This document shows positions 18,138-38,828 of a stretch of DNA of 64,000 bases, one piece after another. The DNA is from Candidatus Micrarchaeota archaeon (GTDB lineage: Archaea > Iainarchaeota > Iainarchaeia > JAADDC01). The stretch is from NCBI GenBank assembly GCA_027046625.1, contig JALTXX010000003.1:1-64000 (forward strand), read 5' to 3'. The notes beneath the pieces are model-generated. The model was given only the letters and a program-made list of their open reading frames with translations, made no database searches and was not told the DNA's origin. How positions within the stretch are numbered: position 1 is the stretch's first letter; each line of letters opens with the position of its first letter. The position numbers and the translations under genes are program-made.

Positions 18138-19047
18138 GTGCATTTGGGCATGCGCCTGTAAGGAGAAGCACTGATAACTTTCCAAGGGTAAAGAACATGT
18201 AAGAAAGGAATAGCATAATGGGTACCAAGGACATAGCATCTACCATTTTCCCTGTTCTAATTAGAGCACCTACAGCACCTGCTAATACTGCTTGAATGAG
18301 TACATACAAGGTTAGAATGTTATTTATAACCTCCGAGGTGGCAACCTTCTGTTTAAAAAACTCCTCTGATTGCATGCCACTTTTCACCATGTCCTCTCCA
18401 ATTTTCATCATGAAGAGCTGTATACCCATGGACATACCCACTATTAGAGGTCCAAGCACAGCTGCAGACACAAATATAAACATAAACTGCATAGAAACTC
18501 TAGCCTTTCTCTCTTTCCTGATCTGATAAGTCTTCCTAATGTCTTCTGCAATCTCATCCAGTATATCTGCTACCCTTCCACCCGTTCTTAACGAATCTGT
18601 AATAATGAGGACCGCCTTTCTCAAGAAATCGGAATCTATCCTCATGGATAAAGAGTTTAGAGCTGCAATGAAGGATTTACCAGCCTCAATCTCCTTTAGC
18701 ATAAGGGAGAACTGCTTTGATAGCTCTCCATACTCAGATGCTATCACCTCTTTTATGGCTACCTCAAAGGTACCCCCAGATCTCAACACGGCTGCCATCT
18801 CCCTTAGTGCATCACCCAGATTTTCCTCGATGCTCTCCACAATCTGCTTTCCTTTTTTGTAGGGTGTAAACACAATAAACATTCCCACAATAAGTATGAC
18901 AATACCGAACAGATAGTAGCCAGTGAGTATGAGAGCTATTCCTATAAGAGAGACCACACTACCAAGGGTTAGTATAAAACGGGCGTTTAGCTTGGGAAAC
19001 GCTAGCTTTACCACATTCTCATAGTGTTTTATCCATTCAGCTGGCAA
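18109..19047 (-). CDS. Type II secretion F / TadC-like pilus platform protein
   Basis: LGDALREMAAVLRSG, GGRVADILDEIA. Confidence 0.88.
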   Translation of the reverse strand: MPAEWIKHYENVVKLAFPKLNARFILTLGSVVSLIGIALILTGYYLFGIVILIVGMFIVFTPYKKGKQIVESIEENLGDALREMAAVLRSGGTFEVAIKEVIASEYGELSKQFSLMLKEIEAGKSFIAALNSLSMRIDSDFLRKAVLIITDSLRTGGRVADILDEIAEDIRKTYQIRKERKARVSMQFMFIFVSAAVLGPLIVGMSMGIQLFMMKIGEDMVKSGMQSEEFFKQKVATSEVINNILTLYVLIQAVLAGAVGALIRTGKMVDAMSLVPIMLFLSYMFFTLGKLSVLLLTGACPNALTCMLDLLL

Positions 19048-20185
19048 GGGGATCAGACCTCCTTACAAAGATTGCTAGCACCAACATAAAGAAAGGAATG
19101 GCAACCAGGTATATAACCCTCAATGTCTCTGGTGGCATGCCAAAAGCTTGTAGAATGTTGTTCTGCATGGGGGCGTTGCCTATACCTGCTAGCATGGATA
19201 AAATAGCTGGAAACACAATACCTGCAAACATAAATACAACTCCGATCATGTTTAGCTTTTCAGCAAATTCCCTTACTCTGTTTCTCTGTTCAAATGACAA
19301 GTCCTCTGCGATACGCTTTATAGCGTCTGAAAGGTTTCCACCAACTCGAAGTGATCTTAGGATCTGGGATATGGCCAGCCTTACCCATTTTGACCTGGAT
19401 CTTAGTGCGAAACTCTCAAGAGCCTCTTCCGTTGTTTTTCCCTGGGAAATTTCTCTTAGTGTTCTTTTAAATTCCTCTGAGAGTACCTTATACCTTGCAG
19501 CTGCAATAGACTCCATGGCATTGTAGAGGCTCATACCAGAGCGGATAACAACCGCCAAATGTCTAAGGGCAAAGGGTAGCTCCTTTTCCATAACGGAGGC
19601 TCTTTCATTGGTTTTCATGCGGGGGTAGGAAAGAGCAGCCCCAAATGCTATTATAAAAACTATTAGAGGTGTTAGAAACGTGTTTAAAGCTGCAACAATA
19701 GGGTTGGAAGCGCTAATTACCATGAGTAATCCAACCGCAACAAGGGAAAGCAATGCCATAACGCTGGCAAATACAAGGGATATGATGACGTACTGTCTTG
19801 CTGTAAGCTTTATATTAGCTGCGTAGAGCTCAAAATCCAATTTTCTTAGCAATTCATTATTTGCCAGCTTTTCTAGTAGTCTATCATAGAGATTTTTGTA
19901 CTTTTCATAGATTTTTCCAAAAAATCTTATGATATCCGAGGGGTGTTCAGTGAGAGGGACCGTAATCCTTGACATAATGGATCGTACAGTTATAATGTTG
20001 TGCACCGCAGTCTCGGCCTTTTCCTCTTTTTCCTCCATAACCTCTACATTCTGCTTCTCTCTGTATTTCTCTATAATCTTCTCCACTACTTCCTCCGGAA
20101 GTAATTCATCTATCTGAACGCTTTTCTTTTCCTTCTTCTTTTTCCTCCTAAAAGCGTCCTTTATGCTGTCTAGGATTTTTGCCAC
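19037..20185 (-). CDS. Type II secretion F / TadB-TadC-like pilus platform protein
   Basis: ELPFALRHLAVVIRSG, GGNLSDAI. Confidence 0.88.
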   Translation of the reverse strand: MAKILDSIKDAFRRKKKKEKKSVQIDELLPEEVVEKIIEKYREKQNVEVMEEKEEKAETAVHNIITVRSIMSRITVPLTEHPSDIIRFFGKIYEKYKNLYDRLLEKLANNELLRKLDFELYAANIKLTARQYVIISLVFASVMALLSLVAVGLLMVISASNPIVAALNTFLTPLIVFIIAFGAALSYPRMKTNERASVMEKELPFALRHLAVVIRSGMSLYNAMESIAAARYKVLSEEFKRTLREISQGKTTEEALESFALRSRSKWVRLAISQILRSLRVGGNLSDAIKRIAEDLSFEQRNRVREFAEKLNMIGVVFMFAGIVFPAILSMLAGIGNAPMQNNILQAFGMPPETLRVIYLVAIPFFMLVLAIFVRRSDPLAS

Positions 20186-21756
20186 CGCTTCTTCCCCTCC
20201 TCAAAGTATCTCTGAAGCTCCTTTTTCAGACTTTTCATACCCTTTATATTTCTCTTTACTAGCTCTCTAATGAAGTCTGCCCTTCTCTGTATTTCGTCCT
20301 CCAGATCAGAAATCTCGAGGGCGGTATAGTCCTTTAGAGTATTAAGATACGCTACATGAGAGTCTACCTGTATCATAGTGTCCTCTTTGGGCTCCCACAC
20401 AAAAATTGTCTTTATTTTAGCCTTTTCATCCTCCTTTATTACCTCTGCAATCTCTGTAACCCTTCTTATGCTTCCCTTTCTTCTATCGTGGATCCTGTGT
20501 TGCACTATAATGAAGTCCAGCGCTCCCACCATGATCTCTGGCACGTTCATGGGAGGGGATGTGATACGTATGATGGTTTCCTTTGCAGAGTTTGCGTGTA
20601 TGGTGCCCATGCTCCCATCATGACCTGTGTTCATGGCGGTAAACATGGTGGCAGCCTCTTTGTGTCTGACCTCACCTACTATAATTCTATCCGGCCTCAT
20701 TCTAAGAGCATTTTTCACCAGTACGTCCATATCAACCTCTCCAGTACCCTCTATGCTTGGTGGCCTGGTTTCTAATCTTACCCAGTGTTCTAGAGGGAGG
20801 TTAAGCTCTGCGGTATCCTCTATGCTTATAACCCTCTCGTAGGCAGGTATGAAAGCAGCCATTACGTTGAGGGTGGTGGTTTTACCGGAGCCTGTGCTAC
20901 CCGCTATGAGTATATTTGCTGGTTTTGCACCCATTCCATCCACTGCCAGCCACATAAAGGCAGCAATATCAGGGTTGAACGTGCCAAACCTAATGAGATC
21001 TATGATGGTGTAAGGATCTTTTCTGAACTTTCTTATGGTAATGGTGGAACCATCTACAGAAATGGGGGGTATGGTAGCGTTAACTCTGCTTCCGTCCGGC
21101 AGTCTTGCATCAAGAAGCGGATTTTGTATATCGATTCTTCTCCCCACATCCCTTGCGATCTTGTCTATAATGTCTCTTATCTCCTTATCATCTACAAAGA
21201 CGATGTTGGTAAGCATCATACCATATTTCCTGTGAAACACGTATACAGGCCTGTTAGGACCTATTACCATGATCTCTTCCAACTCGTCGTCATAGATAAG
21301 GTAATCTATGAGACCATATCCGATCATTTCTCTTACTACAATGTCTGCGTAGTATTCCTTTCTTCCTGGCGGTACACCAAGCTCAGGGAAATTCTCTATA
21401 ATCTCAATAACCTTTCTTCTGTAGAAGTTCCTTCTTGCCTCGTAATCTGTGAAGGTAGTTCCTCTAAGGGATACGAGGCGGGTTGTAGCATCCTTTAGAA
21501 TGTTTATAATCTTTCTTTCGCTCTCTGTGGGCTTAGGAATAGGAACCTTGTAGATTAGAAGGGGCTCTCCTTCCCTTTTTACAATCTTTACATCACCATA
21601 CTCTGCAATTACCACCTCGGGTGCTTTAGCCTCCTCTTTTTCGGGGGCAATCTCTTCATGCTCTAAGGACTGTTTTTCCTGCTTCTTCTGGGTTGACTTG
21701 GCAGCCTCTATGAGCTCCTCTAAGTATCCCATCCCTTTTAGTAGGCTATTCTGCAA
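20170..21756 (-). CDS. CpaF/TadA (VirB11-family) pilus assembly ATPase
   Basis: DARLPDGSRVNA, GSTGSGKTT, LRMRPDRIIVGEVR, MNTGHDG. Confidence 0.95.
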   Translation of the reverse strand: MQNSLLKGMGYLEELIEAAKSTQKKQEKQSLEHEEIAPEKEEAKAPEVVIAEYGDVKIVKREGEPLLIYKVPIPKPTESERKIINILKDATTRLVSLRGTTFTDYEARRNFYRRKVIEIIENFPELGVPPGRKEYYADIVVREMIGYGLIDYLIYDDELEEIMVIGPNRPVYVFHRKYGMMLTNIVFVDDKEIRDIIDKIARDVGRRIDIQNPLLDARLPDGSRVNATIPPISVDGSTITIRKFRKDPYTIIDLIRFGTFNPDIAAFMWLAVDGMGAKPANILIAGSTGSGKTTTLNVMAAFIPAYERVISIEDTAELNLPLEHWVRLETRPPSIEGTGEVDMDVLVKNALRMRPDRIIVGEVRHKEAATMFTAMNTGHDGSMGTIHANSAKETIIRITSPPMNVPEIMVGALDFIIVQHRIHDRRKGSIRRVTEIAEVIKEDEKAKIKTIFVWEPKEDTMIQVDSHVAYLNTLKDYTALEISDLEDEIQRRADFIRELVKRNIKGMKSLKKELQRYFEEGKKRWQKS

Positions 21757-21770
21757 TAAAAGGTTGACGC

Positions 21771-22943
21771 ATGGTAAGTGTGATCAGTCCTCGGTTATGT
21801 ATAAGATGTAAGGGGAGGTTGTGGTGCGGACTGAGCAAATGCCCTATTCTAGAGGCAAAACGGCTGATAAAAGGGGTAAACAAAAGGGAATTGTCCGGCT
21901 ATTCTCCGCCCTCCCTCCTAATAGGGTGGAGGGGATACCCAGAGGTAAACGTTACACCTATATTATCTGAGGAGCGATCAGATATAGCAGAGAACCCTTC
22001 TTATTGGGCTGGAAAGCTCTCTATTGAGGAGATACTAGATTTGAGAATGAATATGGGTGGTGGCTCCCAGAGAAGACATGTTAAAAATATTCCAGAGGAT
22101 ACTATCTTGGATATAGCTCTTAGCAAGAAACCTATAGCTCTGGATGTAACCTTTAAACAACCACCAAAGAGTAGTGTAACATTTTCCAACCTATTTCCTC
22201 CCATTGGGTTTAGGGGAGAATTGGAACGTTTAGAAATAGCGGAGAATCCCAAAATAGACAAGAGGGCAGAAAGCCTTTACTATGACGAAGTAAAGGCTAA
22301 AGATGCAGTTATATACCTGTATGAAAAAGGAAGGGATGTGTATGAGCTCTCCCGTTATCTATCATCAGGGATTTTTGGTAAGGAGAAACGACTAGTGCCT
22401 ACAAGGTGGTCCATAACAGCGGTTGACGACATAATCTCGAATTATCTCCTTGAAAAAGTATCTACATTCCCTCCTATAGGCAGGATAGAGTTGTATACCT
22501 CTTCTCTCTATGATAACCACTTCTTTATCTTGTTTATTCCCGGTCCCTGGGCCTTTGAGCTTGTGGAGGCCTGGGCCCCAAAATCCTTCTGGAGTAGGGG
22601 AAAGGAGATTATAGTATCAGACTACGAGTTCGGAAGAAAAAGAAAGAACTACGCCTCTAATGTGGGTGGATCTTACTACGCCTCTAAGCTTGCAGTACTG
22701 GAAAAACTCTACGAGAAGAGGAGGGTGGCATCTGTTCTTATCTTAAGAGAAGTCAGGGAAGGGTATTATGCGCCTTTAGGGGTGTGGCAGGTAAGGGAGA
22801 ATGTGAGACATGCACTAAGAAGAAACCCCCTCTACTTTGACAGCCTGAGAGATGCTTACAACTATATACTTTCTCGTAGTAGGGTAAAGAAGTGGAAGGA
22901 ATACAGCATTCTTCTCAAAGGTGTTCAACAAAGAATAATTTAA
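21771..22943 (+). CDS. nreA: Nre-family DNA repair protein
   Basis: CIRCKGRLWCGLSKCP, LVPTRWSITAVD, PLGVWQVRE. Confidence 0.92.
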   Translation: MVSVISPRLCIRCKGRLWCGLSKCPILEAKRLIKGVNKRELSGYSPPSLLIGWRGYPEVNVTPILSEERSDIAENPSYWAGKLSIEEILDLRMNMGGGSQRRHVKNIPEDTILDIALSKKPIALDVTFKQPPKSSVTFSNLFPPIGFRGELERLEIAENPKIDKRAESLYYDEVKAKDAVIYLYEKGRDVYELSRYLSSGIFGKEKRLVPTRWSITAVDDIISNYLLEKVSTFPPIGRIELYTSSLYDNHFFILFIPGPWAFELVEAWAPKSFWSRGKEIIVSDYEFGRKRKNYASNVGGSYYASKLAVLEKLYEKRRVASVLILREVREGYYAPLGVWQVRENVRHALRRNPLYFDSLRDAYNYILSRSRVKKWKEYSILLKGVQQRII

Positions 22944-23177
22944 GGGCAGCGGGCCGTAGGCCGCCTTCTGTATTGAGACGGGATTAGACTTAGCGGGCAT
23001 TCGCCCTTGCACCCAACCCGGACCGTTTCAACCACACCACACATCATGGGTAGGGGTACCTCATCCCTCCGTGTGGTGGGTGTCGTTTCTGTTCCCGGGA
23101 GTCCCTCACGGGACTTGTTTTTAGCGGGTGGGCGGACCTTCCTCAGGAGACCCCCGAGACCCGTCTGCCCGCTGCCC
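22944..23177 (-). ncRNA. rnpB: RNase P RNA (reduced, about 234 nt, type-M-like)
   Basis: P1 GGGCAGCGGGC/GCCCGCUGCCC; CR-I GAGGAAGGUCCGCC; CR-V ACAGAAGGCGGCCUA; ACAGAAA and UGAAACGG loops. Confidence 0.93.
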
Positions 23178-23180
23178 ATA

Positions 23181-23230
23181 TCGGTGTAGGTGACACTCAT
23201 CACCACTCAGAGGAAATATCTCCTCATCTC
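23181..23230 (-). ncRNA. Box C/D methylation guide sRNA
   Basis: C GAGAUGA, 13-nt guide, D' CUGA, C' GUGAUGA, 12-nt guide GUGUCACCUACA, D CCGA. The D guide pairs 11 nt with 16S at 37656-37666. Confidence 0.85.
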
Positions 23231-23661
23231 CATATACATAGGGTGAGATTTGTTTTATTACAGTTTCTCGGATCGTTGTTGGTAATACACAGGGAGAAAT
23301 CCTTCTTGAATAGTATGTCTGCATCGATGGGACAAGAAGTGGAACATCCTATGTTATTTGCTATAATACTGCCTTCTATAGCGCAGTTAAGCGTTTCTGG
23401 CATGAAATCTTTCTTATTTGCACTAAAGAAGGATTTTATGCATCCTGGAATCCTAAAATCCCCAATTTTACACGCCCACACTCCGTCGTCTACAGCGAGC
23501 TTAAAGATGGTGTGATAAGCAGCCAGCTCAATCCTTCTATACAGAAGATCCTCCGAAACAGCAGATGTAACACCGTACGCTGCTGTAAGGGCAAAGTGGG
23601 AGGCTGCTATAAACAACAACAGTGCCACAAGTACATCCATGGTAAATATCTGACCTTTCAA
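23224..23661 (-). CDS. Class III signal peptide (pilin-like) protein
   Basis: TTG start, MKGQIFTMDVLVALLLF; Cys-rich C-terminus. Confidence 0.8.
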   Translation of the reverse strand: MKGQIFTMDVLVALLLFIAASHFALTAAYGVTSAVSEDLLYRRIELAAYHTIFKLAVDDGVWACKIGDFRIPGCIKSFFSANKKDFMPETLNCAIEGSIIANNIGCSTSCPIDADILFKKDFSLCITNNDPRNCNKTNLTLCIWR

Positions 23662-23924
23662 CAGCTCACCTCCCTGGATACAATCCAAATAAAGATACCT
23701 TCTCCGCTTGTATACCTAATACCTCCCTCCTGTATATTGTCTATGACGACTCCTCCCACATCTGAGGCAATGTCCATGAAGTAGCTGTTTGCATCTGTTA
23801 GGTAGGAACATATGGCCACCCTCGTAGCATCCCTCACCTCTTCCCAGTCTGGTGCCACTGCTCCAATAAAGGTTGTGAGCAGGAAGAGGGCTAACACCAT
23901 ATCTACGGAGAACACACCCCTCAT
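23658..23924 (-). CDS. Class III signal peptide (pilin-like) protein
   Basis: MRGVFSVDMVLALFLL. Confidence 0.75.
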   Translation of the reverse strand: MRGVFSVDMVLALFLLTTFIGAVAPDWEEVRDATRVAICSYLTDANSYFMDIASDVGGVVIDNIQEGGIRYTSGEGIFIWIVSREVSC

Positions 23925-24202
23925 TATCCCGCCCTCACATTGATACCTCTTGCTCTTAGCCTATCAATGAGCTCATTCGGACCTCTCAATACTAATCCTC
24001 TATCATAATAGAACCTTTCTACCTCATAAATCTTCATGCTTTCCTGTTCGAGGGCTACCTCCTCCCTTATCAGTACAGGAGTAGCCTTTATGAGAGCCCC
24101 TCCACCCTCTAGCGTGTCTAGCATGATGTTTATGGATATAAGAGCTCCTAGCACTACTGCAAGCACAAGTATAAGGAACTCTCCCCATACCTGGCCTTTC
24201 AT
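23924..24202 (-). CDS. Class III signal peptide (pilin-like) protein
   Basis: MKGQVWGEFLILVLAVV. Confidence 0.8.
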   Translation of the reverse strand: MKGQVWGEFLILVLAVVLGALISINIMLDTLEGGGALIKATPVLIREEVALEQESMKIYEVERFYYDRGLVLRGPNELIDRLRARGINVRAG

Positions 24203-24582
24203 GGTATCCCACTCACCTCTCCGCCACTTATTTTTATCCTTGTAAAGGTGTTTATGGTGGGTCCGGAGGTAAATACCCTGTCAAGCGTTACAATACACTC
24301 GCCCCCGCTACACAGATCCGTTGTAACCCTTGCCTCTAACCTCCTTAGGTCTATTGTGGTGTTTGGCGGTACCCACACACCCATCTTTACCATACCATCT
24401 GATACATCCGTAAATTCCCCAGCTGCCTTTACCCTGAGTAGACTCACCCTTGCAGAGAGAACATTCCTTATATCGTCCTGCATGTTAATAACATCGTTTA
24501 TATGGATGGTTGTGAGAGCTATGTACCCTCCCAGCAACACCATTACTAGGATACCATACTCTATGGCTATAATACCTTTCAC
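24199..24582 (-). CDS. Class III signal peptide (pilin-like) protein
   Basis: MKGIIAIEYGILVMVLLG. Confidence 0.8.
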   Translation of the reverse strand: MKGIIAIEYGILVMVLLGGYIALTTIHINDVINMQDDIRNVLSARVSLLRVKAAGEFTDVSDGMVKMGVWVPPNTTIDLRRLEARVTTDLCSGGECIVTLDRVFTSGPTINTFTRIKISGGEVSGIP

Positions 24583-24740
24583 TTTAGTCCCTCCAGTATG
24601 ACGTCCTTCACGTCAAGCGCTTTTAGTATCTCTGTTTTCATGGCGTTGGCAAGTGTAAATAGTCCCCCGGCAGCTATAAGAGCCAGAAGGACTCCAATAC
24701 CCACCATGATAAGATACTCTATATGAACCTGAGATCTCAT
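24579..24740 (-). CDS. Small class III signal peptide pilin, 53 aa (not in ORF track)
   Basis: MRSQVHIEYLIMVGIGVLLALIAAGG...EGLK; overlapping start/stop junctions on both sides. Confidence 0.8.
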   Translation of the reverse strand: MRSQVHIEYLIMVGIGVLLALIAAGGLFTLANAMKTEILKALDVKDVILEGLK

Positions 24741-24889
24741 GGCAACCCCCTAAACACAGACACTTTCACTTTATTTTCTACTGTTGCCACAATGGCCGCC
24801 ATCCCCGTTATGGCACCGGCTATGATGAGCACTATCACTAACATGCCCATGGAGGACAGCATGTACTCTGTTGCGGTCTGGCTCTTCAT
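24737..24889 (-). CDS. Small class III signal peptide pilin, 50 aa (not in ORF track)
   Basis: MKSQTATEYMLSSMGMLVIVLIIAG...GLP. Confidence 0.75.
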   Translation of the reverse strand: MKSQTATEYMLSSMGMLVIVLIIAGAITGMAAIVATVENKVKVSVFRGLP

Positions 24890-24937
24890 CCGAACAAATA
24901 ATGGCATCTAAGGTTATATAGATTAGCATGGAAGAGT

Positions 24938-37327: not shown

Positions 37328-38828
<1,501 letters not shown>

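Follow-up and report, generated by a model that had tools for sequence, protein, structure and literature searches.

A box C/D guide sRNA gene abutting the RNase P RNA gene in a small archaeal genome, and its likely transcription as a shared precursor

How are two stable RNAs made when only a few nucleotides lie between them? This question is raised by a locus in a Candidatus Micrarchaeota archaeon, where a box C/D-like unit runs almost directly into RNase P RNA. The window analysed is a stretch of 64,000 nt (contig JALTXX010000003.1, positions 1 to 64,000; assembly GCA_027046625.1), and coordinates refer to it unless they carry the label of another contig of the genome (C6, C7, C11, C16). A preliminary description of the window had proposed a guide sRNA at the end of a pilin operon, within a polycistronic precursor that continues into RNase P RNA. 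We find that the sRNA itself is an ordinary member of a well-known class, and that the unusual part is its junction with RNase P RNA. The explanation that we consider best overall, and probable, is that a working 16S rRNA guide sRNA shares with RNase P RNA a dicistronic precursor that was made by a deletion and is later separated.

Anatomy of the sRNA and its predicted target

The sRNA gene lies on the minus strand at 23181-23231 (~50 nt, with approximate ends), as judged from direct reading, a genome-wide census and homologues. Read 5ʹ to 3ʹ, it consists of a box C region (23221-23230), a Dʹ spacer GAUAUUUCCU (23211-23220; 13 nt if counted from 23223), box Dʹ CUGA (23207-23210), a 3-nt GUG linker, box Cʹ GUGAUGA (23197-23203), a 12-nt D guide GUGUCACCUACA (23185-23196), and the CCGA variant of box D (23181-23184). 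A UAU linker (23178-23180) then leads into RNase P RNA. The preliminary description had placed all the sRNA elements correctly on the minus strand.

The box C region allows two parses, both of which contain the UGA stop codon (23226-23224) of the upstream ORF, whose 3ʹ end reads ...UGG AGA UGA. The parse first proposed, GAGAUGA (23230-23224), was right to place the stop codon within the box; with it, the terminal boxes depart from the consensus twice (AGAUGA for UGAUGA and CCGA for CUGA). We prefer AUGAGGA (23227-23221), paired with CCGA, because it aligns on the stop codon as in a relative of the same genus (G003), where the ORF stop codon likewise forms positions 2-4 of an AUGAUGA box. The preliminary description had also stated that archaeal C boxes often overlap stop codons, and published surveys summarised in a review bear this out: 25% of archaeal C/D genes overlap the 3ʹ end of an ORF, and in almost half of these the stop codon is in box C (PMC7994747).

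Under either parse, both GA dinucleotides of the terminal C/D pair are kept, and the pair would form the tandem G·A pairs of a K-turn. The residues altered in boxes C and D, a U in each case, presumably lie opposite each other at K-turn position 3b·3n, so that a U·U pair would have become G-C. The same UGAGGA/CCGA combination forms the Cʹ/Dʹ motif of another sRNA in this genome (C11:50610-50561), both guides of which match 16S rRNA, and several M. kandleri sRNAs given in supplementary material of PMC4644070 show the variant pair as well. The internal boxes, CUGA-GUG-GUGAUGA, have the short linker of a K-loop. The terminal stem is the weakest element. Relatives have GGCC/GGCC; here only UAUG/UAUG can pair, in a non-standard register that gives a 2-nt rather than a 3-nt bulge, and no short stem closing the C/D K-turn was found at this locus. 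This weakens the case for membership of the C/D class but does not speak decisively against it, since minimal stems are common among archaeal sRNAs.

No Rfam family scores above its cut-off (best sR10 at 22.5 bits and sR43 at 21.4 bits; cut-off 45). Compared with known archaeal C/D sRNAs, such as those of Nanoarchaeum equitans, which has 26-27 (PMC3491384), and the Pyrococcus sR families in Rfam, the RNA belongs to the same L7Ae-Nop5-fibrillarin class but differs in its UGAGGA/CCGA pair, its lack of a canonical terminal stem, its one orphan guide and its lack of an Rfam family.

The D guide pairs with GUAGGUGACAU (37656-37666) in 16S rRNA, which Rfam locates at 37328-38828, also on the minus strand. 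The pairing over 37666-37656 proposed earlier holds, with 10 Watson-Crick pairs and one G-U pair, and the D+5 position faces G37663 (16S nt 1166) through a C-G pair, as had been predicted. The guide thus has the expected ~12 nt with at least 9 pairs including N+5. We take nt 1166 to be ~1197 in E. coli numbering, on the 3ʹ strand of helix 34. The Dʹ guide, with at most 8 pairs, falls short. It had been reported as having no target in the window, and a search widened to 16S rRNA, 23S rRNA and 44 tRNAs found none that is convincing: the best match, a run of 8 contiguous pairs at 23S nt 2148, is not significant, chance alone giving ~0.13 matches of this kind over the ~8.6 kb of targets. Orphan guides are common, making up 28% in Pyrobaculum (PMC7994747). 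The 23S rRNA match itself (C11:18340-22052) spans 3713 nt, against 2987 positions in the model; it is longer than the model and so points to a large insertion or intron, and the contig contains 20 N.

Conservation, covariation and chance controls

Comparisons drew on the family to which this genome belongs, with 14 species-level genomes (0.4-1.0 Mb), and on 27 other relatives of the same class. The Cʹ-guide-D unit is present in 12 of the 14 family genomes and in none of the 27 other relatives, and a control with the reversed pattern gave 0 matches in every genome. In 11 of the 12 genomes that carry it, the unit is upstream of RNase P RNA on one contig, at a distance within 60 nt in eight. In the other three (G008, G009 and G012) the distance is ~640-660 nt, with one gene between, and in G004 the unit and RNase P RNA are on separate contigs.

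Guide and target have changed together. In genus 1 (this genome and G003), 16S GGUAGGUGACAU is opposite the guide core UGUCACCUAC; in genus 2, 16S GGUAGGUCAGUA (G006, G008 and G013) is opposite the guide core ACUGACCUAC, so that both partners differ between the two genera at matching positions. Within genus 1, the 10-nt guide core of this genome is identical in G001, G003, G004 and G005. The comparison with G003 is the most telling: the core is identical at 10/10 positions, amid a flanking ORF (23688-23224) that is 35% identical to its syntenic counterpart and a Dʹ spacer that is unrelated. The Dʹ spacer differs among all genus members. A conserved core amid diverged flanks is the pattern that selection on a working guide would be expected to leave.

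These data bear on the idea that the sRNA is a dead remnant left after a deletion, the region surviving as no more than a leader, through which RNase P RNA is transcribed from a promoter further upstream. The loss of the terminal stem, the two off-consensus terminal boxes and the orphan Dʹ guide are what one might see in a decaying gene. Set against this, the D guide core is unchanged and the Cʹ and Dʹ boxes are perfect, in a neighbourhood that retains just 35% protein identity; the box changes are at paired K-turn positions and produce a variant used elsewhere in the genome; and only two guide letters are unlike those of relatives, both of them the outermost. We regard decay as quite unlikely.

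Could the unit be a chance motif? We took a census of C/D-like loci in the 652-kb genome, requiring four boxes with at most 2 mismatches in total and archaeal spacings, and scored the guides against 16S rRNA, the 23S rRNA match on C11 and the 44 tRNAs. The real genome has 11 such loci, of which 8 have a guide score of at least 9 and 4 a score of at least 10.5. Ten first-order Markov genomes together gave 6 loci (2 and 0 at these thresholds), and the reversed genome gave 1 (1 and 0). The sRNA at 23231-23181 scores 10.5, a value reached in 0 of the 10 random genomes of equal composition, and is not a chance motif. Elsewhere in the genome, two canonical C/D sRNAs stand in tandem, 32 nt apart, at C6:34843-34976; both guides of the first match tRNA-Leu genes, with scores of 11.5 and 10.

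The proteins of the predicted particle are encoded in the genome. Fibrillarin (255 bits), Nop5 (236 bits) and L7Ae (111 bits) are all beyond the Pfam cut-offs, and the fibrillarin and Nop5 genes adjoin each other at C6:51950-53304. Together, these observations support the view that 23231-23181 is a genuine C/D guide sRNA aimed at 16S G1166. We propose that L7Ae, Nop5 and fibrillarin, with the D guide, would direct 2ʹ-O-methylation of this nucleotide, leaving the Dʹ side as an orphan; the methylation is predicted from guide-target pairing.

We presume that the E. coli ~1197 site is the same nucleotide as yeast Gm1428 or the next one. Yeast snR56 and human SNORD25 guide Gm1428 and Gm1490, respectively, in helix 34 (PMC2794176), and the predicted site is in the same helix 34 patch. 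Among archaea, the D guide of T. tenax sR148 ends in GGACCUACG followed by CUGA (PMC4644070); judged from the guide alone, this register would set N+5 on the same G of GUAGG.

A scan of genome contigs with a degenerate pattern gave at least 119 matching stretches. Among the 80 loci listed, most are bacterial chance matches and four are archaeal (L053, L056, L073 and L117); the L053 sequence equals the G009 locus and L056 has the genus-2 arrangement. A 20-base pattern had a single match in metagenome contigs, by chance, inside a coding region. L073 (324-472), from a Nanoarchaeia MAG, is a tRNA, missed by ARAGORN and recovered by Rfam (48.1 bits), whose anticodon loop is interrupted by an insertion of 76 nt. 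The insertion contains a C/D-like unit whose D guide, GACUGACCUACG followed by CUGA, is directed at the 16S site discussed here; in another lineage, then, the same guide resides in a tRNA intron.

In several genus-2 sRNAs, the linker between Dʹ and Cʹ is long and complementary to the Dʹ guide (for example AGGUGGCGUGC and GCACGCACCACC): L165 (G010), L160 (G011), L163, L164 and L166. The linker/Dʹ guide fold of G010 has an energy of -13.6 kcal/mol, equalled in 1 of 200 shuffles, and this Dʹ guide is complementary (8+2 pairs) to the 5ʹ strand of 16S helix 34 as well. We considered whether a hairpin between the C and Cʹ boxes is a conserved family feature, and rejected the idea, because just some of the genus-2 members beat shuffled sequences (the C-Cʹ segment of G010 was matched by 1 and that of G011 by 2 of 200 shuffles), and the segment folds at 0.0 kcal/mol in this genome (G000) and four others.

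The junction with RNase P RNA

The RNase P RNA gene occupies 22944-23177 on the minus strand (~234 nt), with an 11-pair P1 that extends from G23177 to C22944. The match to Rfam model RF00373 (RNaseP_arch), at 23176-22945, scores 128.9 bits where the cut-off is 84, and the gene is the single copy found in a genome that is 94% complete. Stretches invariant across five genus members are intact, and the pairs of P1-P12 are retained, P12 differing from that of genus mates by compensatory changes. A 13-nt hairpin that is present in the other four genus members, with the sequence GGGGAGCAAUCCCC in G001, G003 and G005, is absent at the 23113-23126 region (alignment columns 66-79).

Pfam detects Rpp29 (76 bits) and a weak partial match to Rpp30. 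Pop5 and Rpp21 were not detected by Pfam in the genome, which counts against our preferred explanation of a working, later separated RNase P RNA. No gene was found for HARP, the protein-only RNase P (Pfam PIN_5), and 5 of the 44 tRNA genes are located at most 10 nt downstream of another tRNA gene, so that their 5ʹ maturation needs an endonuclease. RNase P RNA is still needed and intact; lacking the hairpin and with few proteins detected, RNase P here may be a further-reduced version. Position 22943, immediately beyond the 3ʹ end of RNase P RNA, is the last of a convergent gene of 390 aa (Nre_N 288 bits, Nre_C 111 bits); with the two 3ʹ ends abutting, a shared termination region is necessary.

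It is striking how little separates the sRNA from RNase P RNA. A consensus fold of the five genus members starts P1 at G23177, in agreement with the 3 nt between box D and P1 given in the preliminary description. From box D to the Rfam start of RNase P RNA there are 4 nt here, compared with 31-51 nt in the seven relatives that have an adjacent sRNA. The spacer of these relatives contains the 3ʹ half of the terminal stem and then a T4-T5 run overlapping a TATA box.

Promoters were scored with a PWM built from the 38 tRNA upstream regions of this genome. Its motif, nTTWAAAYnT, agrees with the TTTAAA box A of N. equitans (PMC3491384). For 25 of the 38, the highest-scoring site begins between -34 and -28. 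Two tRNA-Val genes (C7:42257 and C16:45365) are without a TATA match at the usual distance and have a common upstream ending CCCAUAUGGA; their tRNAs may mature from transcripts that begin upstream. In each of the 11 relatives examined, RNase P RNA is preceded by a TATA box of 4.8-9.0 bits, usually with the sequence TTTATACAT; it starts at -28 to -31 in ten and at -38 in one. Here, the best PWM score between -50 and -20 of RNase P RNA is -2.3 bits, at -41, and a T-run of at least 4 is absent from 23230-23177. Neither a promoter nor a terminator lies between the sRNA and RNase P RNA, as in a dicistronic unit; the preliminary description was correct that there is no promoter between the two.

An unconventional promoter for RNase P RNA might instead be located inside the sRNA, for example at the AU-rich GAUAUUU (23220-23214), and give independent transcription with a short leader. 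The Dʹ spacer is AU-rich, has no target and is unlike that of all relatives, and a newly recruited promoter might look so. Nonetheless, the negative score at -41 contrasts with the well-placed sites of most tRNA genes, and no match of at least 4 bits occurs between 23250 and 23177. We consider such a promoter very unlikely.

How did the junction arise? Since the spaced form is present in both genera, the abutment is the derived state. Relatives have a spacer with a TATA box, and this genome has 3-4 nt without one, which points to a deletion of ~30 nt that would have eliminated three features at once: the 3ʹ stem half, the likely terminator and the promoter. The abutment is hence not a shared design of the lineage, as might be supposed from the earlier account, but derived by deletion in this one genome.

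An extremely improbable alternative is that the arrangement is a chance motif or an assembly artefact. The genome is metagenome-assembled and the terminal boxes are imperfect, both of which speak for it, but the null models and the conservation with guide/target covariation argue against it, as does an independent contig that spans the junction. This 138-nt contig, from a second sample of the same study, aligns without a gap over 23120-23257 and differs at 1 position; misassembly does not account for the 3-nt junction. Another contig from the second sample diverges from the 5ʹ end of RNase P RNA exactly at 23177, into a TATA-bearing spacer, and we take it to be from a co-occurring relative with the ordinary arrangement. 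The fused state is thus represented by one species-level genome, uncultured and metagenome-assembled, and one short contig of the same study.

Transcription, maturation and related arrangements

Because the junction has no terminator and no promoter, the polymerase should read on from the sRNA into RNase P RNA, and the two are likely to be co-transcribed as a precursor, to judge from the sequence of the junction. We propose that an ancestor, like the relatives, had a T-run and TATA box after the sRNA and transcribed RNase P RNA alone from about the mature 5ʹ end; in relatives, the 5ʹ end of RNase P RNA is probably simply the start of transcription. A ~30-nt deletion would then have removed the 3ʹ half of the sRNA stem, the T-run and the TATA box. 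RNA polymerase would run from the sRNA directly into RNase P RNA, producing a dicistronic precursor on which both RNPs might assemble, each on its own half, and a cut or trimming in the UAU linker would separate the two.

Where would such a transcript begin? The sRNA has no dedicated intergenic promoter, and its transcription may come from read-through of the upstream ORF run or from a TATA-like site within an ORF. The run (19037-24907) contains six small ORFs, with N-termini M-K/R-G/S-Q... followed by a hydrophobic stretch; the last (23224-23688, minus strand, 154 aa) has a pilin-type N-terminus and overlaps the sRNA with its 3ʹ end. The preliminary description called this a pilin operon. The N-termini are indeed of pilin type, but none of the six small ORFs matches Pfam, and "pilin" stays an inference. 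Beyond RNase P RNA and the Nre gene are genes for a T2SSE ATPase and a T2SSF membrane protein, and the gene order around the ORF run is maintained in G003 and G005.

Inside the last ORF, a TATA-like element, AATAAAACAA (23250-23259, minus strand, 5.4 bits), starts 29 nt upstream of the C-box G23230 and is a candidate promoter. It is the single match of at least 4 bits in 23420-23150 on the minus strand. G001, G003 and G005 have sites of 5.5-9.0 bits at -34/-35 of their C boxes (about -30 of the stems), so that a TATA-like site is positionally conserved in all four genus genomes with this arrangement; the one here is weak and in coding sequence. A start at AATAAAACAA is nonetheless suggestive only, because sites of at least 5 bits occur 4.9 times per kb per strand, a frequency that counts against the explanation we prefer, and because the element is located in Lys/Asn codons; its conservation may be due to protein coding. 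The transcript may begin at this weak site rather than at an operon promoter. Of the polycistronic mRNA-sRNA-RNase P RNA precursor proposed earlier, the promoter-less junction stands, whereas an mRNA of the whole operon is not required, given this candidate start. We infer the start site, and likewise the separating cut, in the same manner as the methylation and the co-transcription.

The preliminary description regarded the processing of the precursor as an unknown step. For release of the sRNA this is not so. Citing Tripp 2017, PMC7994747 describes most archaeal C/D sRNAs as being cut from longer transcripts; according to the same source, box motifs alone are needed for release, and RNP assembly shields the body of the sRNA while the ends are trimmed. 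Release by RNP protection and end trimming accounts for the sRNA half of the precursor. The step without a precedent known to us is the putative cut within the linker, which would generate the 5ʹ end of RNase P RNA. Since box D and P1 are only 3 nt apart, the two RNAs must either stay joined or be parted by an endonuclease, and the linker gives little room for two RNPs and a nuclease, which counts against our preferred explanation. We know of no archaeal enzyme that cuts at the 5ʹ end of RNase P RNA. That RNase P itself cuts between U23178 and G23177, at the foot of the 11-pair P1, is speculation.

If no cut is made, the C/D module would be a permanent 5ʹ extension of ~55 nt on mature RNase P RNA. 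Such a natural chimera would be one RNA with a methylation-guide RNP module and an RNase P module, and L7Ae common to both. The 3-nt linker is consistent with this, as is the loss of the terminal stem, with P1 beginning right after box D. The minimum-energy fold of 23240-22935 leaves the sRNA and RNase P parts as separate, independent domains, and P1 need not be disturbed by a 5ʹ extension. However, in relatives the two genes are separate units under individual promoters; C/D sRNPs usually work as free particles of ~50-60 nt; and a bulky sRNP beside P1 could impede assembly of the holoenzyme. A chimera seems to us rather unlikely, and we favour a dicistronic precursor that is later separated.

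Several elements of this arrangement have precedents. Dicistronic tRNA-sRNA units include tRNA-Val/sRNA8 in N. equitans and pairs in I. hospitalis and T. tenax (PMC3491384, PMC7994747), and in T. kodakarensis the 5ʹ leader of the rRNA operon contains snoRNA Tko-19 (PMC4247193). Promoter-less sRNA genes (PMC7994747) and "hijacked" promoters of archaeal C/D sRNAs (PMC5539422) have also been described. As in the tRNA and rRNA units, there would be one transcription unit here with few nucleotides between its parts, and maturation of one part would set the end of the other. Unlike the tRNA-sRNA units, the partner is RNase P RNA, and whereas RNase Z or RNase P, both known enzymes, cuts in those units, none is known for this junction. 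The sRNA is upstream, so it is the other stable RNA that depends on sRNA transcription. A full-text search of the literature found no description of an sRNA-RNase P RNA unit.

A more distant parallel is RPR1 of yeast, the RNase P RNA that is made with a 5ʹ leader which is later removed. The RNA described here would likewise need 5ʹ maturation; it differs in that RPR1, a eukaryotic gene, is transcribed by pol III, has promoter elements in its leader and involves no guide RNA. To our knowledge, endonucleolytic 5ʹ maturation of RNase P RNA has not been described in archaea.

What is the significance of this locus? It indicates that the small-genome lineage of this vent archaeon keeps a guide for a nucleotide in the decoding region of 16S rRNA. 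The junction is a natural experiment, in which the gene for an essential ribozyme lost its promoter and apparently depends on transcription through a guide-RNA gene. If this is true, "hijacked promoter" and dicistronic C/D arrangements extend from tRNA and rRNA partners to RNase P RNA, and maturation of the archaeal RNase P RNA 5ʹ end becomes a testable question. If the precursor is cut rather than chimeric, RNase P or another endonuclease would mature the 5ʹ end of RNase P RNA.
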